The position numbers and the translations under genes were made by a program. 64,000 nt of DNA, taken from Patescibacteria group bacterium. Its GTDB lineage: Bacteria; Patescibacteriota; Patescibacteriia; XYB2-FULL-38-15. Positions 29,618-51,843 of the stretch are shown here, piece by piece (positions within the stretch are counted from its first letter, which is position 1; each line of letters starts with the position of its first letter). A model generated the notes under the pieces. It made no database searches and was not told the origin of the DNA. It worked only from the letters and a program-made list of their open reading frames with translations. The stretch is from NCBI GenBank assembly GCA_041650995.1, contig JBAZJZ010000001.1:427302-491301 (forward strand). The letters run 5' to 3'.

Positions 29618-30865
29618 ATGGATTGGAAAAAAATTTTAGTTGTTGTACTTTTTGTCAGTATCACGCTGGGTATGGGCATTCTTATGTATTATGTTTTTTT
29701 CCGGCCGACTCCGCCGCTTACAAACGTCCCCATTACCAATGAAGCTGTCACGCCCGGCGGGCTCGGCCGCGCGCTGGAAGGTCCCCCAACACCGGTTGAG
29801 GTTTCTGCCACTCCAACTCAAATTTTGGCCCCATCTCTTACCCCTCCGCCACAATTGCCATCAGAAATTTCCCGAGTGGCCAAAGGCGACATAACATGGG
29901 TTGGCACCCTAGTTAATAAACCCATCTCCAACGCCAAACTGGCTTCAAACGGAAAAGATGTTGCTTACTATGATACCGCTGACGGAAAATTTTACCGCGT
30001 TGATGAAAACGGAAATGCCGTCAAACTGTCTGATAAAATTTTTCAAAATGTGGAAAAAGTAAGTTGGGCGCCGACAACTGATAAAGCAATCTTGGAATTT
30101 CCTGACGGAGCAAATATCCTTTATGATTTTACTTCCGAAAAACAATTCACTCTTCCGCAACACTGGGAAGATTTTAGTTTTTCTCCCGATGGAACTCAGA
30201 TTGCCGGAAAAAGCATGGGCATTGACCCTGATAATCGTTGGCTTTTTATTTCCGACCCTGACGGTACGGGAATAAAAGCCATTGAACCTTTAGGCAATAA
30301 CGCGAATAAAGTTGAGGTAAATTGGTCTCCTAATAATCAAGTTATCGCCACTTCTCGCACCGGCCAAGCAATGGGCTTTGAACGCCAACAAATTCTTTTA
30401 GTTGGGAAAAATCATGAAAATTTCCCAGGTCTTACTGTTGAGGGTCAAGGATTTCAGTCGCAGTGGTCTAAAACCGGCGATCGCCTTCTTTATTCCGTTT
30501 ATAATTCCGCGTCAGATTACAAACCGGTTCTCTGGCTCGTCGGCGCGCAGGGAGATAATATCGGATCAGGCAGAAGAAGCCTTTCGGTTAACACCTGGGC
30601 TGACAAATGCACTTTTGCTGACAATGAAACTGTTTACTGTGCTGTGCCACAAGCAATGGAAACTGGCGCCGGATTTCAACCAGATCTTTTTAGCTCTGTC
30701 CCTGATTCATTTTATAAAATAGATTTATCAACAGGACTCAGAAGTCTTGTCGCTGTTCCTTATGGATCTTTTACCGCGGAAAACGTCGCGGTTACCTCCG
30801 ACGGCCGATATTTAACTTTTACCAACAGTCAGACCGGGCGGCTGGAACGTATCCAATTGCAATAA
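29618..30865 (+). CDS. membrane-anchored beta-propeller (PD40/TolB-like repeat) protein
   Basis: Signal anchor. Repeated FSPDGTQIAGKS and WSPNNQVIATS blades. Confidence 0.4.
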   Translation: MDWKKILVVVLFVSITLGMGILMYYVFFRPTPPLTNVPITNEAVTPGGLGRALEGPPTPVEVSATPTQILAPSLTPPPQLPSEISRVAKGDITWVGTLVNKPISNAKLASNGKDVAYYDTADGKFYRVDENGNAVKLSDKIFQNVEKVSWAPTTDKAILEFPDGANILYDFTSEKQFTLPQHWEDFSFSPDGTQIAGKSMGIDPDNRWLFISDPDGTGIKAIEPLGNNANKVEVNWSPNNQVIATSRTGQAMGFERQQILLVGKNHENFPGLTVEGQGFQSQWSKTGDRLLYSVYNSASDYKPVLWLVGAQGDNIGSGRRSLSVNTWADKCTFADNETVYCAVPQAMETGAGFQPDLFSSVPDSFYKIDLSTGLRSLVAVPYGSFTAENVAVTSDGRYLTFTNSQTGRLERIQLQ

Positions 30866-30898: not shown

Positions 30899-33142
30899 AT
30901 GAAAAAAACAAAACGCCAAGATTTTTATCGCGTTCTCCTGATATTTTTTTCTTTCGCGTTTTTATTTTTTTCTAATCCTGTTTCAGCAAAAGAAGTCCCC
31001 TGCGAATACATCCCAAGGGACAGCAGCGGAAAAATCATTTACTTTGAGGGTACTGACGCCAACCACCAACCATGGAGTAGAGAAATGGAGGAAGCAGAAT
31101 GTTTGGCAAAATGCAGTAGTGAGTCGCCTACCGGCTTAAAATTCGACTGCGCTGGAGGGTGGAGCGGCGGCTTATTCGAAAAACCAACTGGCTGTGATCC
31201 TGCTCGCACAACATGCGGCCCGGTTATTAATCCAATTCTAACAGTTAATTGCAAATTTACACCAAGAAGACCAGACGGCTCAACGCTTGATGACGCCTGG
31301 GAGAGACTAACTCCTTCAGAGAGTGAATGCCGAAGTCTTTGTGCTGATAGTACAGTGCTCTGCTCAGTCACTTGCGGCACAATTATGGACACTCTCTGCT
31401 GCGACGAAACAAAAACAACTTGTGAAGCGACAGCTATTGCAGCGACCACCTCTTCGACCACTTCCCCCTATCAATTTGACTCCATAACTCCAAGTCTAGA
31501 AATTCCCCTGCCCACCCTTCCGAGTTTTTCTGAATTCACAGATCTGACTCTTCAGGGAGAGGCACCAAACAGATATCTCTGGATTCCTTGGATTGGCCAA
31601 TACATTGCTGCAATTTATAAATACGCGATTGGAATAGTAGGAGTTTTAGCTGGGATTATGATTGTAGTTGGAGGTCTTCTCTGGCTAACAGCCGGGGGGT
31701 CGGCTGAAAGAGTTTCCACGGCAAAAAGCTTTATTGAAAGTTCTTTGGTTGGCTTGGTTATTGCCCTGACTTCCTACATGTTGCTTTATGTCATAAACCC
31801 TAATTTGGTGGGGTTTGAGTCGTTGAAGGTAAAGTATGTTGAAAGGGTAACGCCCGAAGCGGGCGGAGGAGGAATGGAAGCAAGGGGTGAAATCACCTCA
31901 GGTGGTGCGGGATCTGCCCAGGCCTTCAGAGCTATAAGCTGCGATGGACTCGCAGAAAGCGGCGAAGAATTTGAAGCTTTTTTCACTTCTTATTATGTTC
32001 CTGCTCCTTACGGTAATCCTTCTGGTTATACAGGCATCGCTTCAAATGAAAGTACAGGTGCCCCTTTAAACGACTCTATGAAAGATTTCTTCTGCGCCGT
32101 GGCAATGGAGTGTTCTTGCCCCAATGGTGAGAAAGATCAATCATATAAATGTTACGCAAAAAGTGGCGTATTCGCCAAAGGCGGCGCGAGAAACGGCTGG
32201 TGGCCATGCAAAGCTTTTTCTCGAGATACAAGCTATTGCGGAACAAGCGATACTCTGCCTGACGGACAGCTTCGCCACCGTCCGGGAGAAACTGTTGCTG
32301 CGGATTGCAACTGCACTTCCCATCGCTCTGGCGACTGCAAAATTGAAATAACTTTACGAAATGGCAGTAAAAAAATATTACAAATTACCGATACGGGATC
32401 AGGTATTAGAGGCAGGCGATTTGATTTTTTCACTACCATCGGTGGGGAAAAATTAAGTGGTGTTTTTAAAGTAAAATTTCTGCCCGGATGCACTCCAGCC
32501 GGAGAATATGGCGTCCCCCGTGGCAGTGCTTGCACTTTTGCGGCGCCTCCTCCCGGTCCGCTTGGCCCCCAACCAGCCAGTGCGACGAGCACGACTAGTG
32601 AAGGAAAAATTGCTGTTATTGGCGATTCAATAACAGCTGATGGCACTCAATATCAAAGTTACCTGCGATCCAACTGCGTAGGAAAAACCATGGAAATTTT
32701 CGCGCAAGTGGGTCAACAAACTTCTTGGATGCTCGAACAATTTAGAAACAATGTTAAAGGCAAAGGATTTGACGGATTAATTATCCTGGGCGGAGTTAAT
32801 GATTTATCTAGCGGAAGAACTTCTTCTCAAATTCAAACTAATTTAAATGCTATTTATTCTGAAGCTAAAACAGACGGAATAAAAGTAACTGCTGTCACGG
32901 TCTTACCATGGAAAGACTATTCGAGATGGGATACCACCAAACAGACAAATACTGAAGCACTTAATCGCTGGATTCTCGGTTCGTCAGCTGACGTGAAGGT
33001 TAACGCCTATGCTGAATTCGGAGATTCAAGCGATTCGGCAAAACTAAAAAGTATTTATGATCCTGGAGATCATTTGCATCCTAACGCCGCTGGTTCAAGA
33101 AAATTGGGTGAAATCATTGTTAACGCAGGAGCCTGCAGGTGA
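30899..33142 (+). CDS. secreted multidomain protein: Cys-rich N-domain, VirB2/TrbC-like TM hairpin, 3D (MltA-like) domain, SGNH/GDSL hydrolase
   Basis: Signal peptide ...VSA|KE. TM hairpin IVGVLAGIMIVVGGLLWLTAGGSAERVSTAKSFIESSLVGLVIALTSYMLLYVI. 3D-domain-like PGETVAAD...ITDTGSGIRGRRFDFFT. SGNH blocks GDSITADG, GGVNDL and DHLHP. Confidence 0.6.
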   Translation: MKKTKRQDFYRVLLIFFSFAFLFFSNPVSAKEVPCEYIPRDSSGKIIYFEGTDANHQPWSREMEEAECLAKCSSESPTGLKFDCAGGWSGGLFEKPTGCDPARTTCGPVINPILTVNCKFTPRRPDGSTLDDAWERLTPSESECRSLCADSTVLCSVTCGTIMDTLCCDETKTTCEATAIAATTSSTTSPYQFDSITPSLEIPLPTLPSFSEFTDLTLQGEAPNRYLWIPWIGQYIAAIYKYAIGIVGVLAGIMIVVGGLLWLTAGGSAERVSTAKSFIESSLVGLVIALTSYMLLYVINPNLVGFESLKVKYVERVTPEAGGGGMEARGEITSGGAGSAQAFRAISCDGLAESGEEFEAFFTSYYVPAPYGNPSGYTGIASNESTGAPLNDSMKDFFCAVAMECSCPNGEKDQSYKCYAKSGVFAKGGARNGWWPCKAFSRDTSYCGTSDTLPDGQLRHRPGETVAADCNCTSHRSGDCKIEITLRNGSKKILQITDTGSGIRGRRFDFFTTIGGEKLSGVFKVKFLPGCTPAGEYGVPRGSACTFAAPPPGPLGPQPASATSTTSEGKIAVIGDSITADGTQYQSYLRSNCVGKTMEIFAQVGQQTSWMLEQFRNNVKGKGFDGLIILGGVNDLSSGRTSSQIQTNLNAIYSEAKTDGIKVTAVTVLPWKDYSRWDTTKQTNTEALNRWILGSSADVKVNAYAEFGDSSDSAKLKSIYDPGDHLHPNAAGSRKLGEIIVNAGACR
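30991..31845 (+). repeat. 855-bp perfect direct repeat, copy A, shared 5' module of the tandem paralogs
   Basis: Repeat ends compared base by base. The encoded 285 aa and the antisense ORFs 31039-31461 and 33294-33716 are identical to copy B. Confidence 0.85.
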
Positions 33143-33159
33143 GAGATTAAATTAAAAAT

Positions 33160-34863
33160 ATGATAAAATACCGCCGCAAAATTTTCCTGCTTATTTTTTT
33201 AATTCCTTTTTTATTTATATTTTTTTATGAGACAACTTCAGCGGTAGAAGTCCCCTGCGAATACATCCCAAGGGACAGCAGCGGAAAAATCATTTACTTT
33301 GAGGGTACTGACGCCAACCACCAACCATGGAGTAGAGAAATGGAGGAAGCAGAATGTTTGGCAAAATGCAGTAGTGAGTCGCCTACCGGCTTAAAATTCG
33401 ACTGCGCTGGAGGGTGGAGCGGCGGCTTATTCGAAAAACCAACTGGCTGTGATCCTGCTCGCACAACATGCGGCCCGGTTATTAATCCAATTCTAACAGT
33501 TAATTGCAAATTTACACCAAGAAGACCAGACGGCTCAACGCTTGATGACGCCTGGGAGAGACTAACTCCTTCAGAGAGTGAATGCCGAAGTCTTTGTGCT
33601 GATAGTACAGTGCTCTGCTCAGTCACTTGCGGCACAATTATGGACACTCTCTGCTGCGACGAAACAAAAACAACTTGTGAAGCGACAGCTATTGCAGCGA
33701 CCACCTCTTCGACCACTTCCCCCTATCAATTTGACTCCATAACTCCAAGTCTAGAAATTCCCCTGCCCACCCTTCCGAGTTTTTCTGAATTCACAGATCT
33801 GACTCTTCAGGGAGAGGCACCAAACAGATATCTCTGGATTCCTTGGATTGGCCAATACATTGCTGCAATTTATAAATACGCGATTGGAATAGTAGGAGTT
33901 TTAGCTGGGATTATGATTGTAGTTGGAGGTCTTCTCTGGCTAACAGCCGGGGGGTCGGCTGAAAGAGTTTCCACGGCAAAAAGCTTTATTGAAAGTTCTT
34001 TGGTTGGCTTGGTTATTGCCCTGACTTCCTACATGTTGCTTTATGTCATAAACCCTAATTTGGTGGGGTTTGAGTCGTTGAAGGTAAAGTATGTTGAAAG
34101 AATCCCTACCAACGAAATTGTAAGTAACCTTTTAAGTACAACTGAGACTTTCACGGGAGATCCTGAGTCGAATAGACCTGCCCCGCAATCGTTTCCTGAC
34201 TGCCCAATTGACCTTAGCGCCCCCCATGTCGAAGGCGAGGGACCGAATAATCCTCGCGCACAAGAATTTAAACAAAAAATAATGACTGTAATAACAGGGG
34301 TAACCCCAAGAGAGAAAGTTGTGCAACTTGCCCAAGCAGCTTTAAAATGCGGAGTAACACTCGGAAGCTGTGGAAAATTTAGTGAAAATATTAATGCTCT
34401 AGCCGGAATCTCCGGTAGAGGAAGTTCTCTTCATGAAATTACTGGAGATCAAATGAAATTCTTATGTAAACTAAATTGTGGGGATCGTCCTGGCGTAAGT
34501 AATATTTGTGTTTCCCCCAGAGAAGCTCCTTGTCTTTCCGAAGCTAGAAGCATTCCGACCGCAGAAAAGAAAAAAACCGTCTACGATAAATTAAAAAATG
34601 AAATCTCGGGAAGTAGGGGTTGCGCCACAACATGGCCGGACTGCTGGGCAAACGATTTAGAGATAGGCGATTCATTTGTGATTTTCAACGCTAATTCCGA
34701 TCCGCCAGGCAATCATACAGCAATTTTCTTAGGGTGGGCTTCTGAGGGAAAGGCATACACGATTAATGGTGCCGCCGGAAGAGTTCCGTGGGAACATGCT
34801 TGGTGTATAAAAAGTACCTGTCCTAACCCATATCCTCTCGTAAGGGTTTATAAAGCTCAATAA
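33160..34863 (+). CDS. secreted paralog: same Cys-rich N-domain and TM hairpin, different C-terminal CHAP/NlpC-P60-like domain
   Basis: The N-terminal 310 aa are identical to the upstream gene except the signal peptide. The C-terminus has candidate catalytic Cys (GSCGKF) and His (GNHTAIFLGW), typical spacing for CHAP-type amidases/peptidases. Confidence 0.5.
   Translation: MIKYRRKIFLLIFLIPFLFIFFYETTSAVEVPCEYIPRDSSGKIIYFEGTDANHQPWSREMEEAECLAKCSSESPTGLKFDCAGGWSGGLFEKPTGCDPARTTCGPVINPILTVNCKFTPRRPDGSTLDDAWERLTPSESECRSLCADSTVLCSVTCGTIMDTLCCDETKTTCEATAIAATTSSTTSPYQFDSITPSLEIPLPTLPSFSEFTDLTLQGEAPNRYLWIPWIGQYIAAIYKYAIGIVGVLAGIMIVVGGLLWLTAGGSAERVSTAKSFIESSLVGLVIALTSYMLLYVINPNLVGFESLKVKYVERIPTNEIVSNLLSTTETFTGDPESNRPAPQSFPDCPIDLSAPHVEGEGPNNPRAQEFKQKIMTVITGVTPREKVVQLAQAALKCGVTLGSCGKFSENINALAGISGRGSSLHEITGDQMKFLCKLNCGDRPGVSNICVSPREAPCLSEARSIPTAEKKKTVYDKLKNEISGSRGCATTWPDCWANDLEIGDSFVIFNANSDPPGNHTAIFLGWASEGKAYTINGAAGRVPWEHAWCIKSTCPNPYPLVRVYKAQ
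33246..34100 (+). repeat. 855-bp perfect direct repeat, copy B
   Basis: Identical to 30991-31845. Divergence begins right after GTTGAAAG. Confidence 0.85.
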
Positions 34864-38895: not shown

Positions 38896-38938
38896 TTTTA
38901 TAATCCTTTTTAATTCAGATTAGTTCTATGCGCCCGCG

Positions 38939-39010
38939 AGGAATCGAACCTCGATCACAAGCTCCGCAAGCTTGTACTCTATCCGTTGAGCTACGGGCGC
39001 AAAAAAATAA
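38939..39010 (-). tRNA. tRNA-Arg (anticodon read as GCG)
   Basis: Cloverleaf folded manually: acceptor GCGCCCG/CGGGCGC, anticodon stem CAAGC/GCTTG, loop TTGCGGA, T-loop TTCGATT. Confidence 0.6.
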
Positions 39011-39216
39011 TCTCAACTAAACAAAATGCCTTTATCTATTTAAACAAAAAAGATGATTTTTGTCCATCACATACAAAATCTGGTTTTTAGCGCTACGTTC
39101 ATTGGATCTTACAAAAATTTCACTGGACCCTACGGACAATTTACTTAGAACCAAATTTTGTACGTGATCCAATCAAAGAACGAGCCGCCAAGGCTCGTCT
39201 TTTAGTTTAAATGCAA

Positions 39217-39711
39217 TTAAATTTTTAAAAATCTTTCGTATTCCTCGGATAATGGTTCGCGCTCTTCATCCAAATTTTCCGCCAGATACTTTAAAAGAAT
39301 TTCTCTTACTCTGACTGGATTTTGGTTGTTGAGAGGAATTGATAATCTCGACCTCAAACCTTTTAAGTTAAAATACAAATTTTTTACTTCCGGCGGTTCG
39401 TAAATAATGTAAAAACAAACAAAATCTTTCCAAGTATGAAATTTTTTTCCGACGCCAATCCCCTTTTCAGAAATATTAAAATCGATTTCCATCGGCTCCT
39501 CGCGCGCCCGAATAAAAATAATTACCGCTGCTAAAATCAAAATAACCGCAAAAAGAAAATCTAACGTATAAATAGCGTACAACAAAAGCAACGCAAGCAC
39601 TATCCCCGCCCAAAGATACCAGTGACGACCTCTTTCGTGCTTAGTGTATTCGGGTATTTTCCACCCGGCTAAAATTGCACCATATTCTACATTTTTTGTT
39701 TCTTCGGACAT
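39217..39711 (-). CDS. membrane protein of unknown function
   Basis: 164 aa with two central TM helices. Confidence 0.4.
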   Translation of the reverse strand: MSEETKNVEYGAILAGWKIPEYTKHERGRHWYLWAGIVLALLLLYAIYTLDFLFAVILILAAVIIFIRAREEPMEIDFNISEKGIGVGKKFHTWKDFVCFYIIYEPPEVKNLYFNLKGLRSRLSIPLNNQNPVRVREILLKYLAENLDEEREPLSEEYERFLKI

Positions 39712-39744
39712 ATTTTTATCAGCTAATCAAAATAAAACAGAAAA

Positions 39745-39764
39745 CGGAGAGGGAGGGATTCGAA
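39745..39764 (-). other. orphan duplicate of the 3' terminal 20 nt of tRNA-Ser(GCT) (tRNA 3' fragment)
   Basis: CGGAGAGGGAGGGATTCGAA plus the preceding AAAA are identical to 39866-39885 and the flank of the intact tRNA ~120 bp away. The upstream part does not fold as a tRNA. Confidence 0.6.
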
Positions 39765-39865
39765 GGCCCCTCGGTGCGCAAGCGCCCATAAAGGACTTGC
39801 GGGGCGCGGTTTCTTCCCGATCCCTCAGGTTTTTTGAAATCTGCCTGAAGACAAATTTCAAAAAA

Positions 39866-39956
39866 CGGAGAGGGAGGGATTCGAACCCTCGATACGGACT
39901 TTCGACCGTATAACGGTTTAGCAAACCGCTGCCTTCAGCCGCTCGGCCACCTCTCC
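39866..39956 (-). tRNA. tRNA-Ser(GCT)
   Basis: Acceptor GGAGAGG, anticodon loop TTGCTAA, long variable arm, T-loop TTCGAAT. Confidence 0.8.
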
Positions 39957-39967
39957 ACTTCAAGGCA

Positions 39968-40057
39968 TGGCGGAGAGGGTGAGATTCGAACTCACGGTCC
40001 CCTTGCGAGGACTCCGGTTTTCAAGACCGGTGCAATAGTCCACTCTGCCACCTCTCC
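39968..40057 (-). tRNA. tRNA-Ser(TGA) with genomically encoded CCA
   Basis: Acceptor GGAGAGG, anticodon loop CTTGAAA, long variable arm, 3' ...CCTCTCCGCCA. Confidence 0.8.
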
Positions 40058-40098: not shown

Positions 40099-40818
40099 CT
40101 ATCCCTTTGCCAACGCTAAACCCAAGACTTCTCTTGCCCCGACGTTTTTCAAAACCCTCGCGCATGCTTCCATGGTCGCACCGGTTGTAAAGACATCATC
40201 TATTAAAATGATTTTTTGATTTAAAATTTTTGATATATCAACCGCTAAAAAAGCTTCTCTCATATTTTCTTTTCTCCCAGCCCCATCCAAACTAACCTGC
40301 GACGCGGTCAGCCTAGAACGCGCTATAACATCTTTTTCCACGGAGCAACCAAAATATTCTGAAATTTTTAAAGCAAGCAATTCGGACTGGTTAAATCCTC
40401 TTTCCAGTAATCTTTTTTTGTGCAAAGGAATCGGTGTAATAAAATCAGGTTTCCCCACCTGCCCCTCAACTTTTTTCAATTCTCTAAATAAAAGTGCGCC
40501 AATCGGCAGAGCTAACTCTTCCACAAATCTATATTTCATCCCATGAATCAAATTTTTTATAACCCCGTTATTGTAAGAATAGAGAGTAATAATTTTATCT
40601 AAATTTTCACCACGAGTAAAATGTATGTCTGGCATTATTTTTTCAAAACAACTTTCACAGAGCCACTCTCCTTCTCTCCCGCAACCCAAACACTCGATCG
40701 GAAAAATAATATCAAAAATAAACTTTTTGACTCGAGCCAATCCAAAAATCATTTCCCCTCCACGGATTGTTAAAATTATTAACCAACAATTATTGCTGCA
40801 CCCATTTTGCTTCGTCAA
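40099..40818 (-). CDS. comFC: ComF-family protein (zinc finger plus phosphoribosyltransferase domain)
   Basis: CLGC...C..C N-terminal Cys pairs. PRTase motif IILIDDVFTTGATM. Confidence 0.7.
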   Translation of the reverse strand: MTKQNGCSNNCWLIILTIRGGEMIFGLARVKKFIFDIIFPIECLGCGREGEWLCESCFEKIMPDIHFTRGENLDKIITLYSYNNGVIKNLIHGMKYRFVEELALPIGALLFRELKKVEGQVGKPDFITPIPLHKKRLLERGFNQSELLALKISEYFGCSVEKDVIARSRLTASQVSLDGAGRKENMREAFLAVDISKILNQKIILIDDVFTTGATMEACARVLKNVGAREVLGLALAKG

Positions 40819-41426: not shown

Positions 41427-43340
41427 TTATTTGCCTTCTGTGGCCATTTTTTCATCAAATTCTTTTTTTGCGGCTTCAATTTCCAGAAGTTGCCTTGGAT
41501 CGGAAGTAATCAATTGATCCTCGGAATATGAAGCAACTACTTTAATTGCCGCGTGTTTGGCGCCAGCAAAGAAAATCCCTTCTCCAACTCCACACTCCAG
41601 AAGCAGATATTTTTCTCCTTGAGTTAATAAAAAGGTTTTTTGTATCAAATCAATGGAAGCTGGAGATTGTTTCAGGAGTAATTGAAGGGACGAGTTTGTC
41701 ACAATCGCCTGACCGTACGGCGAAGTCAAAAAGTCGTTGACGTCTTGGGTAATAGTCGTAACTCCTAAATAATATTTGCGGCAACGCTTAACCAAGGCAA
41801 AAATAAATTTCGCGCTGTCTTCGTGCTGCATCAGCCACCAGGCCTCATCAACCACAAGAACTCTCTTCTTTCTTTCTGAACGGACGACATTCCAAATAAA
41901 ATTGACGACGTTGTAAATAGCGATCGGCCGCAATTCATCTTCTAAATCGCGCACGGAAAAAATTACTAAAGGATTTTTAACGTCGATCGTGGTGGGCGAA
42001 TTTAAGAGACCGGAAAAAGTTCCTTCGGTAAATTTTCTAAGCCGTTCAACCAAGCTTTCCGCGCCAGTCATACCTTCTAAAATATTTTGCAAATCTTTCA
42101 TTACCGGCGGATCAATTCCCATTTTTAAATCCGTATCGGCCGTAATATCTTTTTTCGCGTAAGTTTCAATTAAAGCCCGATCTAAAATAGAATCTTCTTC
42201 CGGAGAAAAAATAAGTCTGCCGCCTTCGCCCGGCCGCGCAAGCATTAACCGCAAAAGACCTTTTAGGGTAATCACCGCGCTTCTGATAATATCTTCCGCG
42301 CTCACCTCTTCTCCAACCGGCCGCGGCAAATCAAATGGATTAATTTTTGATTCCGAAGCCAGGGAAATATTGACATAAGCCCCGCCCACCGCGTCGGAAA
42401 GATGTTTATATTCCATTTCCGGATCAATGACAAGGACCTCCACGCCCATCATCAAGGAGCGCAGTACTTCTAGTTTGATGGCATAACTTTTACCCGCGCC
42501 GGAAGTGGCGAATACCACGGCATTGGCATTTTGCAAAGAAAATCTATCAAACAAAATTAGACTGTTATTGTGACGGTTTATTCCGTAAAGAATTCCATTA
42601 TCAGAAGTCAGCTCCGCCGACATAAAGGGGAAAGACGAAGCAATCGGCGACGAATTCATGTTAAAGGTAATCATTAATTCGTCATTGCCGAGTGGCAGAG
42701 TTGAATTAAATCCTTGTTCCGCCTGATAAAAAACTCGTTTGGTGTAAATTAATTTTGAACCGAAGATTGATTCAATTTCTTCGGAAACTTTGTCCAATTC
42801 TTCTTTGCTCCCGGCATAAATTGTGACGTAAAGAGCAAATTGGAAAAAATGTTCAATTCCCTGTGTTAAATCGTCGCGTAATTGTTCAATGTCCCGAAGC
42901 GCCGTTTCGCGTAATGGATCGCGCGGCGCGCCTTTTTCGGCGTCGGATAAAATTTGCGCTTCAAGCGCTCCGGCTTTCTTCTTTAATTGTTTCAAAATTA
43001 TTTCTGCCTTAACCGGGTAAAAAAACATTCCCACGTCAACGGTCGTATTTAAATTAATAATCGGCGTAAACCAACCAACGCTGATATAACGAGGATAAGT
43101 AATAACAAATATAGTCCTGACGAATTTATCGCCAAGTAAAATGTGCGACGACTCCACTTTCATTGATGCCGGAGCGATCAAATCCTGGACAGATACAACG
43201 CCCTTACGGTAAATTCTTTCTTCTTCCAGGACGATTTTTTCTTCTTCTAAGCGACGCTTCTGCTCTTCTGGAGAAACGGGCGGCGGCGCGGCAGTTTTTT
43301 TCCGCTGAATTGCTGCGGCTGGTTTAAAAGCCATGATCAA
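41427..43340 (-). CDS. virB4: VirB4/TraC/TrsE-family type IV secretion ATPase
   Basis: Walker A VVFATSGAGKSYAIK and Walker B KRVLVVDEAWWLM with family-typical spacing. 637 aa. Confidence 0.8.
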   Translation of the reverse strand: MIMAFKPAAAIQRKKTAAPPPVSPEEQKRRLEEEKIVLEEERIYRKGVVSVQDLIAPASMKVESSHILLGDKFVRTIFVITYPRYISVGWFTPIINLNTTVDVGMFFYPVKAEIILKQLKKKAGALEAQILSDAEKGAPRDPLRETALRDIEQLRDDLTQGIEHFFQFALYVTIYAGSKEELDKVSEEIESIFGSKLIYTKRVFYQAEQGFNSTLPLGNDELMITFNMNSSPIASSFPFMSAELTSDNGILYGINRHNNSLILFDRFSLQNANAVVFATSGAGKSYAIKLEVLRSLMMGVEVLVIDPEMEYKHLSDAVGGAYVNISLASESKINPFDLPRPVGEEVSAEDIIRSAVITLKGLLRLMLARPGEGGRLIFSPEEDSILDRALIETYAKKDITADTDLKMGIDPPVMKDLQNILEGMTGAESLVERLRKFTEGTFSGLLNSPTTIDVKNPLVIFSVRDLEDELRPIAIYNVVNFIWNVVRSERKKRVLVVDEAWWLMQHEDSAKFIFALVKRCRKYYLGVTTITQDVNDFLTSPYGQAIVTNSSLQLLLKQSPASIDLIQKTFLLTQGEKYLLLECGVGEGIFFAGAKHAAIKVVASYSEDQLITSDPRQLLEIEAAKKEFDEKMATEGK

Positions 43341-43359: not shown

Positions 43360-44037
43360 TTATTCCACTTGGATTTTATCCACATCCGCTAATTTTTCCG
43401 TCTCGGCAAGCTCTGGATTATAAATATTATAATAAAGTTCAATCAAGCTCTGCGTGTCCAATATAACGGAAGTGAGGCCCATCCCTGAAAGCAACATCTG
43501 GACATGTTCAACGCGGGCAAAAAGATCTCTCCGACGACGTTTAAAGGTTTCCGAACCAAGGCGCAAAACCGCACCCGGTCGCAAAACCTCACTAAACCTT
43601 GACCAGAATCCTTTTCTTTTATCTGATAGCGGATCGTATGGAACGGTAACATAAAAACGTTTACTCATAATATCACCCATTTCCACTAACTCTCTAACAT
43701 ATTCACGATAATCGGCAATTTGAATTTTGAGTAATTCATTTGTCTGTTCTTTTTCCGCTTGCTTTAATTTTTCTAAATATCCGTCAATATTTAACTTTCT
43801 TGATTGAATAACAATCTGCAAGGGAAATTCCAGGGCGTTTAAAAAAGAAACATACGCCGCAATAATGGCGTTCTGTTCATCTTCCGACTTTAAGGCAAAA
43901 TTGATACTTGAAACTAAAAGCACGGCGCGCAGGGTTCCGTCTTTCAAAATAACGCTGTCTTCTCTGATTTCAGCGATGTCGAGACGCGCGCGGCTTGCTA
44001 CCCCCGCTTTCGCCCCGGCAAGTTTTTTCGACTGCAT
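43360..44037 (-). CDS. hypothetical protein in the T4SS-like operon
   Basis: 225 aa, no TM. Operon context only. Confidence 0.3.
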   Translation of the reverse strand: MQSKKLAGAKAGVASRARLDIAEIREDSVILKDGTLRAVLLVSSINFALKSEDEQNAIIAAYVSFLNALEFPLQIVIQSRKLNIDGYLEKLKQAEKEQTNELLKIQIADYREYVRELVEMGDIMSKRFYVTVPYDPLSDKRKGFWSRFSEVLRPGAVLRLGSETFKRRRRDLFARVEHVQMLLSGMGLTSVILDTQSLIELYYNIYNPELAETEKLADVDKIQVE

Positions 44038-44045
44038 AAAATAAT

Positions 44046-44471
44046 TTATTCGCCTTTATATACTCCGCCCGTATTTACAATTAATGATAATTCCGCCAAT
44101 TTTGTAGCCACCATGCGTTCTTTAACCGGCCTCGGTGGGATTATTTTAACTTCTTCTTTTTTTAAAAATTGCCTCAGTTCGTCTGCAGTTGATTCTTTAT
44201 TCCAAACTCTTAATTTGGGTCGGCGCGTAGTTTGGATAAGATTTAGAAGAAAAAAATGAAATGGCTGGCCATTAACTTTAATGAAAGCCAATACTATGCC
44301 TAACCCAAAAACAGGAATACCGAAAGCTAAAAAATAAAAAAAAGTAAGAAGTTTATAGGCAATAAATAAAATAATCGTTACGGCTAAAAGAATGATAAAC
44401 TGACGGGAAGTAATTGGCCCGATTATTTTATCTTCCACGTCAATAAATTGAGGGATGACAAACTGCTGCAT
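44046..44471 (-). CDS. small two-TM protein, PrgI/VirB3-like by position and topology
   Basis: 141 aa. VIPQFIDVEDKIIGPITSRQFIILLAVTIILF is followed by a second TM. Directly upstream of virB4, as VirB3-like genes usually are. Confidence 0.35.
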   Translation of the reverse strand: MQQFVIPQFIDVEDKIIGPITSRQFIILLAVTIILFIAYKLLTFFYFLAFGIPVFGLGIVLAFIKVNGQPFHFFLLNLIQTTRRPKLRVWNKESTADELRQFLKKEEVKIIPPRPVKERMVATKLAELSLIVNTGGVYKGE

Positions 44472-44556: not shown

Positions 44557-46167
44557 TTAATACCTCAAAGCGCGGTTTAGCTCCATTATCGCCTTATATT
44601 CTTCAACAGTAAGTATCAGTTGACCCGCTGCCTGACGACTGGAAATGATCTTATCCACAGGCAATCCTTTTTGCAGACTTTCACGGCCAATTTCAAGATA
44701 AATTTTATTAACTTCCGATTCTTGCCAGGCCTTAATGCCAGCTATTCTTTTAGCAAACGTTTCTCTTTCCAGAAGCTCTATTTTCTCCTTAACTTTCGCC
44801 GCGGCTAAAACAGGGTCGGGAGAAAGCCGTCTCCAATCAACTAAAGTCATCTCTCGAAGTTCTTCGACGGGGCCAACAAGTTTCGGCACGTATTTTACGT
44901 CATCAAGCCGCGGCCGATTATCTCTTGGAGGGATTGGCCTTCGCATCTGCTGTTGCGGAGAAACGGGTTTAAAAATCTGAAGCGGTTTTGGTTTTTCTTC
45001 TTCTGGCAAATCAAACGGTGTTTTTGATGGACGAGGAGATATACCCAACGATTCTTTTTGAGTAGAAGGCGGCGCGGGGAGGTTTTCCGCAATAGACGGC
45101 GGAGGAGCTTTGGATATTTTAGGAAGCTCTCCGACCGCTTTTACCTGCACGCCAATGGGCGGCGCGACTAACTCTTCTGGCACTTCCATGGACGGCGGCG
45201 ATGCCTTTCTTGTAATTTCCCGCCAGCGGACATCCATTTTATTTTTTATTTCATTAATTGTTTTTTCTTTAACCTCTCCTAATTTTATTTTCTCTTCATC
45301 TGTGGCTATTTTTATTTTCTGAAGCTCTGTTTCTTTTATCTTATCTCCCAATTGCTGAAATCTCTTGCGCGCCAAAACGAGAATTTTTTCCACTTCCCCT
45401 GACGTCAACGGAATTCCTGCCGGACCAGCCGCTCCACTCAAAGTTTCTTTAGTTTCAAAACCGTCGCGAATATCTTTAAAATGAGTCAATAAAATTCTTT
45501 CCAATTTTTGACGCGCTTCCTCGGATAACGACACTCCGCTCGCCGCAATAATTTCTTTAATAATTTTATTTGTTTCAGCTGGTTTGGTGCCAAGAGAAAT
45601 TTTTGGCAATCTATCTTTCGCCGCTAAAATTTCCGCCTCATCGGTTGGGGAAAAAACAAATTCCGCCACTCCGGGCGGCAAAGCCGACATTGGCTTCTTG
45701 GCTGGCTCCGGGACCCTTTCTTTGATCATGCCCCTTGCCGGCAATGGCTCTCTCCCGGCGGGAATGCGTTTTTTCTCCGCTTCGACCGACGTTGATTCTC
45801 GCGGTTTTACAGTTCCAATTAATTTAATAACCAAGTCTGCCTGCTCTGGTAAAATTCCGAGTCCTCCTTGATCAACTTGCTTCGCTAACGCGCTTTTAGT
45901 TTCAAATTTATCTCGAATGTCTCTCGAGTACGCTTCAACAATTTCCGTAAATCTTTCTTTTAAATCTTCTGCCAAAACAAGGCCACTCTTCCCTAAAACT
46001 TCCTCTGCCAATTTTGATACTGGCACCGCGGCTCGAGCTTTTGGCTTTTCCGCCAAATCATAAAGTTTGCCGCCTCGTAAAATTTTAAACTTGCCGGTTG
46101 GGTCTTTAATGATAATTTCATCTCCAAAATCGGCCATGCCAAAATATTTAATTTTTATTAACTCCAA
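44557..46167 (-). CDS. hypothetical Pro/Lys-rich protein in the T4SS-like operon
   Basis: 536 aa, low complexity. Operon context only. Confidence 0.35.
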   Translation of the reverse strand: MELIKIKYFGMADFGDEIIIKDPTGKFKILRGGKLYDLAEKPKARAAVPVSKLAEEVLGKSGLVLAEDLKERFTEIVEAYSRDIRDKFETKSALAKQVDQGGLGILPEQADLVIKLIGTVKPRESTSVEAEKKRIPAGREPLPARGMIKERVPEPAKKPMSALPPGVAEFVFSPTDEAEILAAKDRLPKISLGTKPAETNKIIKEIIAASGVSLSEEARQKLERILLTHFKDIRDGFETKETLSGAAGPAGIPLTSGEVEKILVLARKRFQQLGDKIKETELQKIKIATDEEKIKLGEVKEKTINEIKNKMDVRWREITRKASPPSMEVPEELVAPPIGVQVKAVGELPKISKAPPPSIAENLPAPPSTQKESLGISPRPSKTPFDLPEEEKPKPLQIFKPVSPQQQMRRPIPPRDNRPRLDDVKYVPKLVGPVEELREMTLVDWRRLSPDPVLAAAKVKEKIELLERETFAKRIAGIKAWQESEVNKIYLEIGRESLQKGLPVDKIISSRQAAGQLILTVEEYKAIMELNRALRY

Positions 46168-47426
46168 TCAAATTCTTTTTTCTCCAAATCGAAGTAAACT
46201 ATTCCTTGATATTTTTCTCCCGCTCCTTTTTTAGCCAAAGCATTAAAAATTTGCATGCCGAGGCGGCCTGAATCGTCATTTGTCATTCCCGCGACATCCT
46301 TTAGGAGATATTGCAAAAGAACGCTCACGTATTGCGCCGCCCGCGGATTTGTTTTAAAACCACTCAACTCCGAGGACCGACCCATTTTTTTAAGATAGGA
46401 GGTCACCATCTCGCCAAACCTTTTATCATCCAATAATTTTTCCAACTTTCCTTCTTCAGCTAAAACTTTTAAAATCGCTGCGAGCTGGATTCGATTCGCC
46501 GCCCGCCCAGGACCGGGAATAGCGTGAAGTAGGGCGTCAACCATTTTTTTAAAATCTCCGCCCGTGGCTTTCTGAATTTTTTTCATTTCCGCTGCAATTT
46601 TTTTCTCTTCTGTTTCATTTCCCCTATATTTAGCTTGAACCTCATCTTTAATATCAGTCGTAGTTTCAATGCTCTGGAGCTCAACGACTTTATCTCTTAT
46701 TTCTTTTCCAATTCTCTCGGTTATCCCCTCTTCATAAGCGTCAAGCGCGCCGTCCACTTCAAAAATCATTACTTCCTCCATTCCCCCGAACTCGATGGAT
46801 GATTCTTTTGTTTTTTCGTAAAATTTTAAAAGATAATCAACCTTGCGCCGGTCTTCTTCACTCAATTTTTTTGTGTTCGCGCTATTGATTAAATATTGCG
46901 ATAATTGCACAATTTCCACTTTTCCCGAACCCAAAGTCTGGCGAGCGTCCGCTAACCAAGCTTTTATTGTTCCCTTAACTTCCGCGCCACCCAAAACAAC
47001 CCCGCTACCAGTCAAAGATTCTTCATTGGCGGAAAACGCCGCGCCAATTTTCTTTTTAAAATTATCTCTATCTTCAAATTTTGCTATAGCTATTAATTTC
47101 GTTTTTATTTTTCTCCAAAGATCATAATCAGGAATTTCAAAAATTAAAGTAAAATTTTCTTGCAAAAGATTAATTATTTCCTCCGCATCAAGCGTTGGAA
47201 GGGCGATAAACTTTGCTTTTATAAATACTTCTTGATAAGTCAATTCATCCTCCGGCTGCTCTATTGCGCTCGATGATAAATTTTTTTCCAAAAAATCAAC
47301 CAAAGCCCGCGCTTCACGAACCAAATCAAAAGTGATAGCCCGCTCCGCGCGCCATTTTATTGCTTCAAGAATTTTTGGACTATTGAAATCAATCATAAAA
47401 AAAATTATTTTTGCACTTCCTGCCAA
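46158..47426 (-). CDS. hypothetical protein in the T4SS-like operon
   Basis: 422 aa. Its ends overlap the neighbouring genes, which suggests translational coupling. Confidence 0.35.
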   Translation of the reverse strand: MAGSAKIIFFMIDFNSPKILEAIKWRAERAITFDLVREARALVDFLEKNLSSSAIEQPEDELTYQEVFIKAKFIALPTLDAEEIINLLQENFTLIFEIPDYDLWRKIKTKLIAIAKFEDRDNFKKKIGAAFSANEESLTGSGVVLGGAEVKGTIKAWLADARQTLGSGKVEIVQLSQYLINSANTKKLSEEDRRKVDYLLKFYEKTKESSIEFGGMEEVMIFEVDGALDAYEEGITERIGKEIRDKVVELQSIETTTDIKDEVQAKYRGNETEEKKIAAEMKKIQKATGGDFKKMVDALLHAIPGPGRAANRIQLAAILKVLAEEGKLEKLLDDKRFGEMVTSYLKKMGRSSELSGFKTNPRAAQYVSVLLQYLLKDVAGMTNDDSGRLGMQIFNALAKKGAGEKYQGIVYFDLEKKEFDWS

Positions 47427-48490
47427 ACTTCATCCGCTCCTTCCGGTTTATTTTTTATTTCATCAAGATATTTTTTGAGAGCCGCGACAAATGATTCAGA
47501 CAAACCCAAGCTCACTAATTCTTTCTCAGATTTTGCTAAAACCGCCGCGGCAGCAGGATTAAAATTATTTTGCGCTAATTGTTTTTCAAAAACTTTGGCG
47601 TGAAGCGTGAGAATTAATTTTCCCTCCAAGCCAAGCTTAAAATCGCCCGCGGCCAAATTTCCTTTTTCGCGCGGCGTAAAATATCCGTAAGCAGCCGGGC
47701 CAAAATGCCGCGCCGCGACTTCCGGTCTAATTTTTTGAACTACCCAAAGCACGGCGGCCAAATGATCTTTCTCTTCAAGCTCATGCCAAATTCTCGCTTT
47801 TCTCCCGACAGAAAAAGCTAATGCCCAATTATTTTGATTCGCGGCAAGCGAAGAAATTTCCTGCTCTAAAGCATAAACTTTTTGCTGAAATAATAAATTA
47901 TCATAAGCTTTTTCACCCGAAATCGGTCGGTCGCCAATAATCATTTCATTAAAAAATTGATGCATGCCCGAAACACTCGACGGATAACCGTAGAAATTTA
48001 AAATTCCTCCCATATCTCCTGTCACAGCGATTTTTTTCAATACCGCGCCGACTCCGGCCAAATCGTTTTTTGCCAAAAATGATTTTAAATTTTCCAAAAG
48101 TTCTTCTGTCTTTGTTCCAGAAATTGTTTTATCTGCTCTCGCTTCGTTTTCTCTTCTTGCTACATCTTCTTCAATTAAAATCGGGGCGATGGCCGCCATT
48201 GTTTCCTCCCATTCTTTTTCCGCTGTTTCTTTTTGTTTTTTAGCTTCGTCTTTCCGACGCGCCAGCTCCGCCTTTCTTTCCTCCTCATTCATTTTCAAAA
48301 TTTTCAGTTGCTCCTCGGCCAAAGCCGCTTCTTCTTCTGTTTTTTTCAGTTCTGCGGTAACTTCTGCTTCTGACATTTTTTCAAATATCTTTGCTTCTTC
48401 CAAAACTTTTGTAAAAAAATCTCTCTCCTTTCCCGGAGGTAGAGATTTAATTTGGTCTTCCATTTCTTTAATTGTGTTTATACCAGCCAT
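47405..48490 (-). CDS. hypothetical coiled-coil protein in the T4SS-like operon
   Basis: 361 aa, charged N-terminal coiled coil. Confidence 0.35.
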   Translation of the reverse strand: MAGINTIKEMEDQIKSLPPGKERDFFTKVLEEAKIFEKMSEAEVTAELKKTEEEAALAEEQLKILKMNEEERKAELARRKDEAKKQKETAEKEWEETMAAIAPILIEEDVARRENEARADKTISGTKTEELLENLKSFLAKNDLAGVGAVLKKIAVTGDMGGILNFYGYPSSVSGMHQFFNEMIIGDRPISGEKAYDNLLFQQKVYALEQEISSLAANQNNWALAFSVGRKARIWHELEEKDHLAAVLWVVQKIRPEVAARHFGPAAYGYFTPREKGNLAAGDFKLGLEGKLILTLHAKVFEKQLAQNNFNPAAAAVLAKSEKELVSLGLSESFVAALKKYLDEIKNKPEGADEVWQEVQK

Positions 48491-48495
48491 ATTTT

Positions 48496-51039: not shown

Positions 51040-51106
51040 AATTAGTCTGTTGTTCTTTTACTTCTTCTTTGTAATATTATACTACAAAAATTGATGCAAG
51101 CCAAAT

Positions 51107-51745: not shown

Positions 51746-51843
51746 GGGAAAGGGATAAGTAAAAATTGTCTGCGATGATTTCCGCAAACTTTGAATTATT
51801 TTATTATAACACAAAAACTCCCGATTTGGGAGGTTAACATTCC

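Follow-up and report, generated by a model that had tools for sequence, protein, structure and literature searches.

Tandem genes joining a type IV secretion pilin-like hairpin to predicted cell wall hydrolases share an exact 855-bp repeat in a Patescibacteria genome

Genes 1 and 2 are two tandem genes on the chromosome of a Falkowbacteria-like Patescibacteria genome, and lie in the 64-kb stretch of DNA analyzed here (the window; Table 1). Their products are listed at NCBI as a "GDSL-type esterase/lipase family protein" and a "pilin," respectively. The gene 1 product is organized as a signal peptide, a Cys-rich head, a linker, a pilin-like hairpin, a 3D-type domain, and an SGNH esterase; gene 2 has its own signal peptide and the same head, linker, and hairpin, followed by an NlpC/P60-like domain. 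The two genes are separated by 17 bp, and radA follows gene 2 after a gap of 19 bp. The beta-propeller protein encoded upstream is a conserved neighbor of pilin-fusion genes and a possible partner of the fusion proteins.

Table 1. Coordinates of the gene pair, its parts, and neighboring features in the window
Feature	Position	Strand	Details or basis
Propeller protein, 415 aa, membrane-anchored, PD40/WD40-like	29618..30865	+	Upstream of gene 1
Gene 1, 747 aa, MFA5128835.1	30899..33142	+	ORF list, Pfam, exact look-up
Gene 1 signal peptide, aa 1-30, ...NPVSA/KEV (cut at /)	30899..30988	+	Hydrophobic segment 11-30, AXA-like site
Cys-rich head and Thr/Ser linker, gene 1 aa 31-199, 14 Cys	30989..31495	+	Predicted structure
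Repeat copy 1, 855 bp	30991..31845	+	Mature head, linker, whole hairpin module to ...KVKYVE(R)
LEIPLPTL linker motif and VirB2-like two-helix hairpin, gene 1 aa 200-316	31496..31846	+	PF18895
Gene 1 middle domain, aa 317-565, 3D/MltA-type (predicted), Cys-rich inserts	31847..32593	+	Invariant motifs
Gene 1 SGNH/GDSL esterase, aa 570-742	32606..33124	+	GDS 575, GVND 632, DHLH 724
Gene 2, 567 aa, MFA5128836.1	33160..34863	+	ORF list, Pfam, exact look-up
Repeat copy 2, 855 bp	33246..34100	+	Same bases as 30991-31845
Gene 2 C-terminal domain, aa 343-567, papain-like	34186..34860	+	Structure and alignment
Gene 2 Cys404	34369-34371	+	Invariant
Gene 2 His519	34714-34716	+	Invariant
T4SS core, VirB4-like ATPase	41427-43340	-	
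T4SS core, TrsD-like protein	43360-44037	-	
T4SS core, PrgI/VirB3-like protein	44046-44471	-	

The Cys-rich domain, linker, and transmembrane hairpin described in the initial annotation are all found in both proteins. Three segments are hydrophobic, the signal at aa 11-30 and two more at 235-269 and 278-304, and the head of ∼165 aa holds 14 Cys residues, with none in the hairpin, 12 and 2 in the C-terminal parts of gene 1, and 11 in that of gene 2. The head is predicted with a pLDDT of ∼80-90, and its predicted fold has no significant match in the PDB. The proposed VirB2/TrbC likeness of the hairpin also stands, with both proteins over the threshold of Pfam PF18895 (T4SS_pilin), although marginally so, at 27.6 and 28.6 bits and thus ∼1 to 2 bits above the cutoff of 26.6, and with weak TrbC (PF04956) matches in relatives. 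A Sec signal peptide would take the N terminus across the membrane, and because the hairpin is predicted to span the membrane twice, the disulfide-rich head and the C-terminal enzyme would both face outward, a topology shared with VirB2 pilins.

The middle domain of gene 1 is predicted to be lytic-transglycosylase-like and of the 3D/MltA type, with invariant TVAAD and TDTGSGIRGRRFD motifs. Its Pfam 3D match (aa 495-517) is weak and sub-threshold, yet the three Asp residues are invariant, 3D is weakly matched in all eight homologs of the domain, and a relative that matches the HMM of the window's middle domain at an E value of 1e-9 (L025:5881-6858) passes the Pfam 3D cutoff (28.4 versus 23.8 bits); the 3D assignment is thereby upheld. 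The SGNH/GDSL esterase is complete, as claimed, with its GDS, GVND, and DHLH blocks and a Lipase_GDSL_2 match at aa 573-734 (E 9e-15). Its description as a peptidoglycan esterase is one possibility, but the solved structures closest to it are those of carbohydrate acetyl esterases.

The C-terminal domain of gene 2 is distantly related to the NlpC/P60/CHAP superfamily, of which it has a divergent fold. No Pfam model matches it, a Foldseek search against the PDB gives no significant match (best E 0.055), and NlpC/P60 folds can be superposed on only ∼95 to 110 of its 225 residues; its structural neighbors include Tn916-like conjugative-element hydrolases (4hpe and 9ubf). Cys404, at a helix N terminus, and His519, in a beta-strand, are invariant in 88 sequences of this domain family, as expected of the Cys/His domain initially proposed; at Asn536 the consensus has Gln.

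The repeat lies within same-strand open reading frames, one copy per gene, and direct comparison confirms the earlier claim of perfect identity followed by total divergence: the copies, offset by 2,255 bp, are alike at every base, and the products are 100% identical over 285 aa. Identity ends exactly after ...GTTGAAAG (31845/34100), and 3' of this point there is no alignable sequence between the two genes. The signal-peptide region 5' of the repeat has ∼50 to 60% identity, and the signal peptides themselves are 47% identical in an identity matrix. An exact repeat of this length cannot arise by chance, and among 84 within-locus paralog pairs of the hairpin family the longest exact run has a median of 17 nucleotides, the next real case being one of 197 bp (L005/L007) that represents partial homogenization elsewhere. 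The 100% figure is an upper bound, as a short-read assembler can merge near-identical copies into one consensus.

It is quite improbable that either the tandem arrangement or the exact identity arose in assembly, from reads of two strains or copies being collapsed or mis-joined. The window does come from a metagenome-assembled contig of 567 kb, the repeat exceeds the usual insert length of short-read libraries, and a few real differences could have been erased when small bubbles inside it were popped by the assembler; strain variation also exists at the locus, as a close strain (L001 to L003) with flanks 96 to 100% identical to the window has a different gene 2 head, with only 46 to 80% identity over the gene 2 signal peptide and head. 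However, two independently assembled genomes (L004 and L005) have the same gene order (LemA-HtpX-propeller-fusion1-fusion2-RadA-MPG-RecG...VirB4), which excludes misassembly of the tandem order, and 51 of 78 loci surveyed have two to four tandem copies. The unique C terminus of gene 1 joins the start of gene 2 directly, and in three further independent Logan assemblies a single contig runs from the 3' end of gene 1 through gene 2 to the start of radA. The tandem pair is real, and since collapse requires near-identical copies beforehand, partial homogenization being on record at L005/L007, recent conversion would still be implied.

The 855-bp identity is best explained, as first suggested, by recent gene conversion between old tandem paralogs. 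The duplication is old, because the orthologous pairs in the two other genomes are only 75% (L004) and 78% (L005) identical at the nucleotide level, compared with 100% in the window. The close strain has another gene 2 head. The same outcome, an identical 5' module with unrelated 3' parts, would be left if a single gene had recently been duplicated in tandem and one copy had then acquired a new C terminus, and C-terminal domains are clearly exchanged within the family, but we consider this the least probable account. Both positions have orthologs with matching C termini in other genomes (in its C-terminal part, gene 1 is 82% identical to P0002, which occupies this position in L004, and gene 2 has 58 to 61% identity with P0008 and P0007 and 99% with P0006), and both genes therefore predate the identity; neither would a recent whole-gene duplication yield such dissimilar signal peptides.

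Conversion would have been recent and intrachromosomal, covering everything over which the two genes align, starting at the signal-peptidase site and ending with the final codon of the hairpin. To separate conversion from selection, differing codons were counted among hairpin codons for the same amino acid: 1 of 90 differs between the paralogs in the window, 11 of 90 in L007, and 32 of 92 in L010, where hairpin protein conservation persists despite saturated synonymous change. Sequence comparison suggests that conversion probably ran from gene 2 to gene 1, since the shared head is closer to gene 2 orthologs (61 to 68% identical) than to gene 1 orthologs (55 to 56%), and its nearest relative, P0005 (70%), also has the signal peptide most like that of gene 2 (59%), although these differences are modest (61 to 70% versus 55 to 56%). 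The hairpin and flanking motifs are 80 to 100% identical in amino acid sequence across genomes, compared with 40 to 70% for the heads, and the hairpin DNA probably serves family-wide as the recombination anchor for exchange of both heads and enzyme domains. Ordinary homologous recombination at the conserved hairpin sequence is enough, and no dedicated domain-swapping mechanism, as had been proposed, need be invoked.

Genes 1 and 2 belong to a large CPR family in which the PF18895 two-helix hairpin is preceded by an "LxIPxPxL" linker. In all 144 hairpin ORFs of the 78 CPR loci, the hairpin is followed by 88 aa or more, so the pilin-hydrolase fusion, which the initial annotation called unusual, is so with respect to the literature searched, where no publication on the architecture was found, but is the rule in CPR lineages. 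The constant module occurs with many other C termini in related genomes: a Pfam census of 117 family members gives SLT (12), VanY (9), C39_2 (7), M15 (5), C70 (4), FGE-sulfatase (4), Glucosaminidase (3), M23 (3), Phage_lysozyme (2), Amidase_2 (1), and NLPC_P60 (1). Among 88 sequences representing the C-domain family of gene 2, 69 carry PF18895.

This mosaic organization is reminiscent of polymorphic antibacterial toxins (CdiA-CT after VENN, Rhs, and MafB), in which a constant N-terminal delivery module ends at an abrupt conserved junction and many alternative C-terminal enzyme domains are exchanged by recombination. The sharp junction here (...KVKY[IV]ER), the diversity of C-terminal enzymes, and the tandem arrays all fit swappable wall-degrading domains that kill competitors in the manner of CDI/Rhs systems or of bacteria-killing T4SS effectors, and domains of the amidase, muramidase, and endopeptidase kinds are characteristic of effectors used between bacteria. 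Such a role is nonetheless improbable: the intergenic gaps leave no room for a downstream immunity gene, likewise in L004 and L005, the variable domain lacks any evident release site and stays tethered to the membrane hairpin, and the head is variable too. The locus is also conserved and syntenic among housekeeping genes and is not on a mobile island.

A Patescibacteria-type T4SS, with VirB4, TrsD, and PrgI genes, is located 6.5 to 9.6 kb downstream of the gene pair. RadA, MPG, RecG, tRNAs, and a ComF-like gene lie in between, placing the pair outside the T4SS operon. Unannotated ORFs run on beyond the T4SS core to 52402. Within the window, the hairpin HMM matches genes 1 and 2 alone, and no other VirB2-like gene was found in the 64 kb around the T4SS. 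The hairpin may instead be only a membrane anchor, and the proteins surface autolysins for growth and division of the cell's own wall, or for nutrient scavenging, with no T4SS or pilus link; this is the strongest of the alternatives, though unlikely. VirB4, TrsD, and PrgI genes are within 6 kb of the fusion genes in none of the 78 loci, where the constant neighbors are the beta-propeller protein and RadA, and the PF18895 scores are marginal. To our knowledge, no characterized VirB2 approaches these proteins in size, as the hairpin carries 165 aa of added N-terminal and 250 to 430 aa of added C-terminal sequence; F- and T-pilus structures make packing of such large proteins into a pilus doubtful. 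Against a simple anchor, hairpin conservation is far beyond what one would need, PF18895 matches 108 of the 117 family members (TrbC/VirB2 weakly in a few), and such genes are counted as Patescibacteria T4SS pilins in the literature (PMC12102498). Old paralogs, recent conversion, and wall hydrolases carried on a T4SS pilin module form the single explanation that we favor, with a probability of about 0.65.

Published Patescibacteria VirB2-like pilin arrays (PMC12102498, Quinonero-Coronel et al. 2025; PMC10633639, Wang et al. 2023) are alike in having PF18895, in their organization as 2 to 11 tandem genes on CPR chromosomes, and in their link to MPF-FATA-like T4SSs without a relaxase. Those pilins are described as small and divergent, sharing no more than 54% identity inside an array, and no mention of fused enzymatic domains was found in that study (PMC12102498), whereas the genes 1 and 2 products are fully identical over the shared region and each adds a head and a hydrolase part. 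VirB1-type hydrolases of Gram-positive T4SSs (PrgK of pCF10, TraG of pIP501, CwlT of ICEBs1, and Tn916-like Orf hydrolases) are likewise membrane-anchored and outward-facing and combine glycan cleavage with an NlpC/P60/CHAP peptidase, but in one polypeptide with a single N-terminal anchor, encoded inside the T4SS operon; in genes 1 and 2 the activities are split, the anchor is a pilin-like hairpin, a head is added, and virB4 is 6.5 kb away. Neisseria pilE/pilS is another case of pilin gene conversion. Like it, and like the paralog arrays of Bartonella (trwL) and Anaplasma (virB2), the latter two cited in PMC12102498, the present pair shows multicopy genes for surface filament subunits, segmental non-reciprocal transfer between copies, and a variable exposed part beside a conserved assembly part. 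In all three systems, conversion draws on silent donors to vary an expressed copy, whereas here it homogenized two full-length, apparently expressed genes whose enzymatic C termini still differ.

Pilin arrays in Patescibacteria are already published, and pilin-enzyme fusions are common in CPR bacteria. Most genomes with tandem VirB2-like arrays lack a recognizable VirB1 (PMC12102498), and the Southlakia pilin array is essential (PMC10633639; PMC12857230). Judged by its domains, gene 1 would display an O-acyl esterase of the SGNH type along with a glycan-cleaving 3D/MltA-type domain. Gene 2 would display a cysteine peptidase or amidase, NlpC/P60-like but divergent, and the pair could between them cut the glycan and peptide parts of peptidoglycan. 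The enzymes may be attached to the T4SS pilin module or assemble together with it. In that position they may act as a counterpart of VirB1, breaching the wall of their own cell to make way for the secretion system, or they may be directed at the host's wall where the two cells meet.

A direct comparison of the two repeat copies, one in gene 1 and the other in gene 2, shows 855 bp without a mismatch, so that the perfect repeat described in the initial annotation is borne out base for base, whereas a general repeat finder run on the window reported only its first 300 nt. The genes are co-directional ORFs separated by 17 bp, are listed in the public database as MFA5128835.1 ('GDSL-type esterase/lipase family protein', gene 1) and MFA5128836.1 ('pilin', gene 2), and share one 567,161-bp contig of a Patescibacteria MAG. 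The identical tract starts with the third base of the codon that directly follows the predicted signal-peptidase site, leaving outside it the two signal peptides, which are loosely similar (47% amino-acid identity), and it extends to ...GTTGAAAG, after which an Arg codon differs in its third base (AGG vs AGA). Beyond that codon there is no alignable sequence between the two genes, and the 855-bp tract is exactly their alignable region. A short-read assembler can order an A-R-B-R-C arrangement correctly yet give both copies one consensus, and the true identity of genes 1 and 2 may therefore be slightly below 100%. The repeat is real and, as a gene-conversion tract, it is clean and ordinary.

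Features of the window discussed in the text, with the equivalent positions in two related contigs where available
Feature	Coordinates	Strand	Remarks
2781-aa ORF	54045-62390	-	weak CBM_4_9 match alone
Repeat protein	14677-16131	-	thrombospondin-type-3/PKD repeats
Repeat protein	62806-63567	-	thrombospondin-type-3/PKD repeats
415-aa protein	29618-30865	+	N-terminal membrane segment and PD40/WD40-like beta-propeller; directly upstream of the fusions; L004 8741-9988, L005 6986-8233
Gene 1	30899-33142	+	747 aa
Gene 2	33160-34863	+	567 aa
855-bp repeat, copy in gene 1	30991-31845
855-bp repeat, copy in gene 2	33246-34100
ComF-like	40099-40818 and 38928-40057 region	-	phosphoribosyltransferase and double zinc ribbon; between the gene pair and the T4SS core
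Three tRNA genes	40099-40818 and 38928-40057 region	-	Arg-GCG, Ser-GCT, Ser-TGA; between the gene pair and the T4SS core
VirB4	41427-43340	-	Patescibacteria-type T4SS core
TrsD-like	43360-44037	-	Patescibacteria-type T4SS core
PrgI/VirB3	44046-44471	-	Patescibacteria-type T4SS core
Five of six ORFs	44557-52402	-	536, 422, 361, 847 and 431 aa
Sixth ORF	52559-53044		161 aa

The tandem pair is real and its duplication is old. Two independently assembled contigs, L004 (Candidatus Falkowbacteria JACRNW010000017) and L005 (JGI Ga0378408_0000208), have in common with the window the order LemA, HtpX, 415-aa propeller, fusion 1, fusion 2, RadA, MPG, RecG ... VirB4, where the fusions are the pilin-hairpin-enzyme genes of the locus. 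The C-terminal domain of gene 2 is kept at position 2 in both contigs (58-61% identity), and the 3D and SGNH part of gene 1 is kept at position 1 in L004 (82%); position 1 of L005 has a different C-terminal domain, which is SLT lytic transglycosylase-like by sequence inspection. The paralogous 5' modules share 75% and 78% DNA identity in L004 and L005, respectively, compared with 100% in the window, and the duplication therefore predates those lineages, with the perfect identity in the window being secondary. An origin of the pair in a mobile element or phage was dropped in view of the housekeeping neighbours in three genomes and an unremarkable GC content.

A near-identical strain, represented by three Logan contigs (DRR321573, DRR358089, and DRR358088; L001-L003), is 96-100% identical to the window over the last 142 bp of gene 1 and over gene 2 from the linker on, into radA, but only 46-80% identical over ~33121-33729, which spans the signal peptide and head of gene 2. 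One of these two closely related lineages has thus had its head replaced, a strain-level swap of an exposed part of the kind that a recognition or antigenic surface would be expected to show. The head shared by both window genes is 61-68% identical to those of gene 2 orthologs (P0006, P0007, and P0008) and 55-56% identical to those of gene 1 orthologs (P0002 and P0011); its nearest relative is in the homologous protein P0005 (70%), whose signal peptide is most like that of gene 2 (59%). Gene conversion probably made the identity in the window (a probability of about 0.8), and the recent conversion proposed in the initial annotation agrees with the older positional orthologs, the restriction of the tract to the homologous region, and the different head in L001-L003. 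Transfer from gene 2 to gene 1 appears the better supported direction from these comparisons. In the simplest history, which has two steps, gene 2 would have taken up a P0005-like signal-plus-head block, and the mature part of gene 2 would then have overwritten gene 1 across the whole alignable region. A 'CSSACAILNFSC'-type head in gene 1 of L001-L003 would favor this direction, and a window-type head would favor the reverse.

The longest exact run in 84 within-locus paralog pairs has a median of 17 nt, and the 855 nt of the window is the maximum; smaller real exact tracts are present in L005/L007 (197 nt), L031 (108 nt), L069 (104 nt), and L028 (82 nt), and the apparent long exact matches in L081, L065, L063, and L059 were discounted because they come from ORF calls that overlap. 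Codons that specify the same hairpin amino acid but differ in sequence number 32/92 in L010, 11/90 in L007, and 1/90 in the window. Amino-acid identity of the hairpin alone was rejected as a sign of conversion, because the L010 hairpins are 92% identical as proteins in spite of the many differing codons; conservation of the hairpin protein thus reflects selection, and nucleotide identity reflects conversion. The reverse of the window pattern is seen in L069 (5539-7647 and 7775-9874), a pair with the 104-nt exact run, where the N-terminal parts are 83% identical and the hairpins 67% identical; homogenization can therefore target the head alone.

More interesting than the repeat itself is the architecture that it exposed. 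The resemblance of the hairpin to VirB2/TrbC pilins that was noted initially stood up to an HMM check, with Pfam model PF18895 (T4SS_pilin) matching gene 1 at 27.6 bits and gene 2 at 28.6 bits, a marginal pass of the 26.6-bit cutoff. Relatives score up to 43.6 bits, PF18895 is found at an E value of ≤0.001 in 108 of 117 family members, and TrbC (PF04956; TrbC/VirB2) gives weak, sub-threshold matches in relatives. Each protein has three hydrophobic segments (aa 11-30, the gene 1 signal peptide, 235-269, and 278-304), and AlphaFold (AF2) arranges helices 228-262 and 267-297 (gene 2 numbering) as a hairpin; the polar loop between the helices is TAGGSAERVSTAK. All of the cysteines (25-28 per protein) are outside the hairpin, with 14 in the ~165-aa head, 12+2 in the C-terminal part of gene 1, and 11 in that of gene 2, in keeping with a predicted N-out/C-out hairpin whose flanking parts are both in the oxidizing exterior, as in VirB2 pilins. 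Genes 1 and 2 also share with VirB2 pilins a signal or leader followed by two hydrophobic helices and a short polar loop in the predicted topology, but mature VirB2 pilins are ~70-120 aa and essentially hairpin, whereas the mature products here, of ~717 and 539 aa, have the hairpin flanked on both sides by large folded domains. Genes 1 and 2 are the only hairpin-HMM matches within the 64-kb window.

The C-terminal part of gene 1 contains two candidate enzyme domains. The SGNH/GDSL esterase assignment is firm, as aa 570-742 match Lipase_GDSL_2 (PF13472) with an E value of 9e-15 (56 bits; cutoff, 32.9) and contain block I (GDS at 575), block III (GVND, for GxND, at 632), and block V (DHLH, for DxxH, at 724); Ser576 of block I is the presumed nucleophile. 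The closest solved relatives in a PDB search are SGNH hydrolases 3p94, 7toj, and 7tog, with no match to gene 1 outside the SGNH part. Entries 7TOG and 7TOJ are cited in xylan and carbohydrate acetyl esterase papers, and it is therefore plausible that the gene 1 SGNH domain is a glycan O-acetyl esterase; the peptidoglycan esterase-like role suggested initially is one possibility among others. The middle domain (aa 317-565) scores 14.7-16.9 bits with the 3D model PF06725, below its cutoff of 23.8, and all eight of its homologs match the same model (E values of 1e-4 to 0.08). Three Asp residues, in TVAAD, ITDTG, and RFD (D153, D182, and D193 of the fragment), are invariant in the eight-sequence alignment. 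A survey ORF, L025:5881-6858, passes the Pfam 3D cutoff (28.4 bits) and matches an HMM of the window domain (E value of 1e-9), such that 3D membership holds transitively, and the domain is accepted as a predicted 3D/MltA-type, lytic-transglycosylase-like domain, in keeping with the initial annotation, with the window sequence itself sub-threshold.

The C-terminus of gene 2 has no match in Pfam, NCBIfam, or PDB sequence searches, including to PF00877 and PF05257, and PDB searches with the whole gene 2 protein and with a profile of the C-terminal family likewise return none; NCBIfam has no model for either gene. An exhaustive HMMER search with this C-terminus recovers 174 representative clusters, and PF18895 is carried by 69 of 88 sampled relatives, so the domain is almost always fused to the pilin module; single weak matches to Amidase_6 and DUF1175 occur among the 88. 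Cys404 and His519 are invariant across these sequences, and position 536 is Asn in gene 2 and Gln in the family consensus. The predicted structure of the domain has a papain-like alpha+beta fold, in which Cys62 of the model begins helix 62-72 and His177 is in strand 176-186, in keeping with a putative catalytic triad made up of a Cys that opens a helix, a His within a strand, and one further polar side chain. This is a new NlpC/P60-like domain family with no Pfam model. The CHAP/NlpC-P60-like designation made initially is thus sustained by the fold and the invariant Cys and His but finds no sequence-profile match. The full-length gene 2 model is poor beyond the head and hairpin (mean pLDDT, 62) and gives only noise in a Foldseek comparison with PDB (ribosomal proteins and generic helical hairpins); the Cys-rich head is modeled confidently (pLDDT, ~80-90) and has no significant PDB structural neighbor by Foldseek. 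A word-index protein search with the C-terminal 253 aa missed even P0006, a 99% identical protein, and gave no match at all. In the database clustered at 90% identity, the gene 2 product is represented by a 36-aa fragment and is therefore invisible in a clustered search.

Homologs of the constant module bear unrelated C-termini. A scan of one genome per species yielded 79 CPR loci, and there are 144 hairpin ORFs in 78 loci (surveyed loci and that of the window), 51 of which have two to four hairpin copies; in all 144 ORFs, the hairpin is followed by a minimum of 88 aa. A Pfam census covering 117 of the ORFs identified, in addition to T4SS_pilin (108 ORFs), SLT (12), VanY (9), Peptidase_C39_2 (7), Peptidase_M15 (5), Glucosaminidase and Peptidase_M23 (3 each), Phage_lysozyme, GDSL, 3D, and SLT_2 (2 each), and Amidase_2, SLT_3, and NLPC_P60 (1 each), as well as Peptidase_C70 (AvrRpt2-like; 4), FGE-sulfatase (4), and Peptidase_C10 (1), which are not classical wall hydrolases. 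Roughly half of the 117 have no Pfam domain after the hairpin. The many alternative C-terminal families in related genomes are as the initial annotation anticipated, although its view of the fusion as unusual is only partly sustained: such fusions are routine in the CPR survey, and the literature searched, which is not exhaustive, yielded no account of a wall hydrolase joined to a pilin module. Domain-architecture databases probably already list pilin-hydrolase combinations. Many contigs with this CPR-specific family (L009, L011, and L013, among others) bear the title 'uncultured Gammaproteobacteria bacterium' (binchicken MAGs), another is labeled 'Methanoregula sp.', and a further one 'Planctomycetota'; these are probably mislabeled or contaminated bins.

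The N-terminal parts are similarly exchangeable. Short forms P0182 and P0183 proceed from the signal peptide directly into the hairpin and then a 3D domain, and other family members have quite different Cys-rich heads. Proteins P0011, P0015, and P0016 have signal peptides that are 97-100% identical, heads that are 43-46% identical, and unrelated C-termini, and between the two L005 paralogs the hairpin module (116 aa) is 100% identical and the head 60% identical. The conserved hairpin DNA is the obvious anchor of module exchange, and the dedicated domain-swapping mechanism contemplated at the outset is not needed.

The VirB4, TrsD, and PrgI genes are 6.5-9.6 kb downstream of the pair on the opposite strand, with housekeeping genes between, and both distance and order are kept in L004 and L005; no T4SS gene is within 6 kb of the fusion genes in the 78 loci surveyed. 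The six ORFs beside this core have no Pfam or NCBIfam match and are presumably unrecognized VirB6/VirB8-type and other T4SS components. Homologs of the beta-propeller protein are upstream and on the same strand in all 38 loci where they were found (and in 36 of 60 when only loci that extend far enough upstream are counted), either adjacent to the fusions (7-41 nt) or one small gene away (~650-880 nt), and the protein may be a functional partner of the fusions. The other constant neighbor is RadA, found in 35 loci and downstream of the fusions in 31 of them. The products of the 2781-aa ORF and the two repeat-protein genes are probably large proteins of the cell surface, such as CPR genomes typically encode.

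Patescibacteria are already known to have pilins of the VirB2-like type (PF18895), also in tandem arrays, and PMC12102498, which covers 3,035 genomes, gives a within-array identity of ≤54%, with most such genomes lacking VirB1. A pilin array is essential in Southlakia (PMC10633639), and a T4SS pilus has been hypothesized for Patescibacteria, with none yet seen (PMC12857230). Genes 1 and 2 would resemble the VirB1-type membrane-tethered hydrolases of Gram-positive T4SSs in their inferred action, although several membership features of those hydrolases are absent. Their architecture is also like that of polymorphic toxins, but the downstream immunity genes of such toxins are absent; the gaps after gene 1 (17 bp, to gene 2) and gene 2 (19 bp, to radA) leave no room for one, and L004 and L005 are laid out in like manner. 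Together, these proteins form an apparently undescribed family that is widespread in CPR, with exchangeable heads and predicted wall-degrading enzymes borne on a pilin-like hairpin. We slightly favor the proteins of genes 1 and 2 acting with the T4SS. A broader proposal is speculative and rather unlikely: that the VirB2-like module is a universal carrier in many CPR lineages, displaying interchangeable peptidoglycan-degrading enzymes and variable, disulfide-rich recognition heads on a T4SS-assembled filament or membrane platform (an 'enzymatic pilus') that opens the host wall. Under this proposal, the conserved sequence just past the hairpin (...NPxLxxFxxLKVKxIER) might act as a signal for assembly or release.

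Patescibacteria, which live on the surface of other microbes, account for much of bacterial diversity. In the only species so far open to genetics, both the T4SS and its pilin array are essential (PMC10633639 and PMC12857230). If true, the 'enzymatic pilus' would be the tool by which CPR epibionts open the host cell wall, and it would account both for the essentiality of pilin arrays and for the lack of a recognizable VirB1 in most Patescibacteria whose pilins are VirB2-like. Fusion of the pilin module to wall-cutting enzymes, of more than a dozen families, is routine in genomes of the Falkowbacteria, Magasanikbacteria, and Uhrbacteria type, which offers an explanation for the scarcity of VirB1 homologs reported in PMC12102498, and provides a concrete, testable idea of what these 'pilins' do, within a surface protein family whose evolution proceeds through exchange of modules and gene conversion, with a conserved hairpin at the center.
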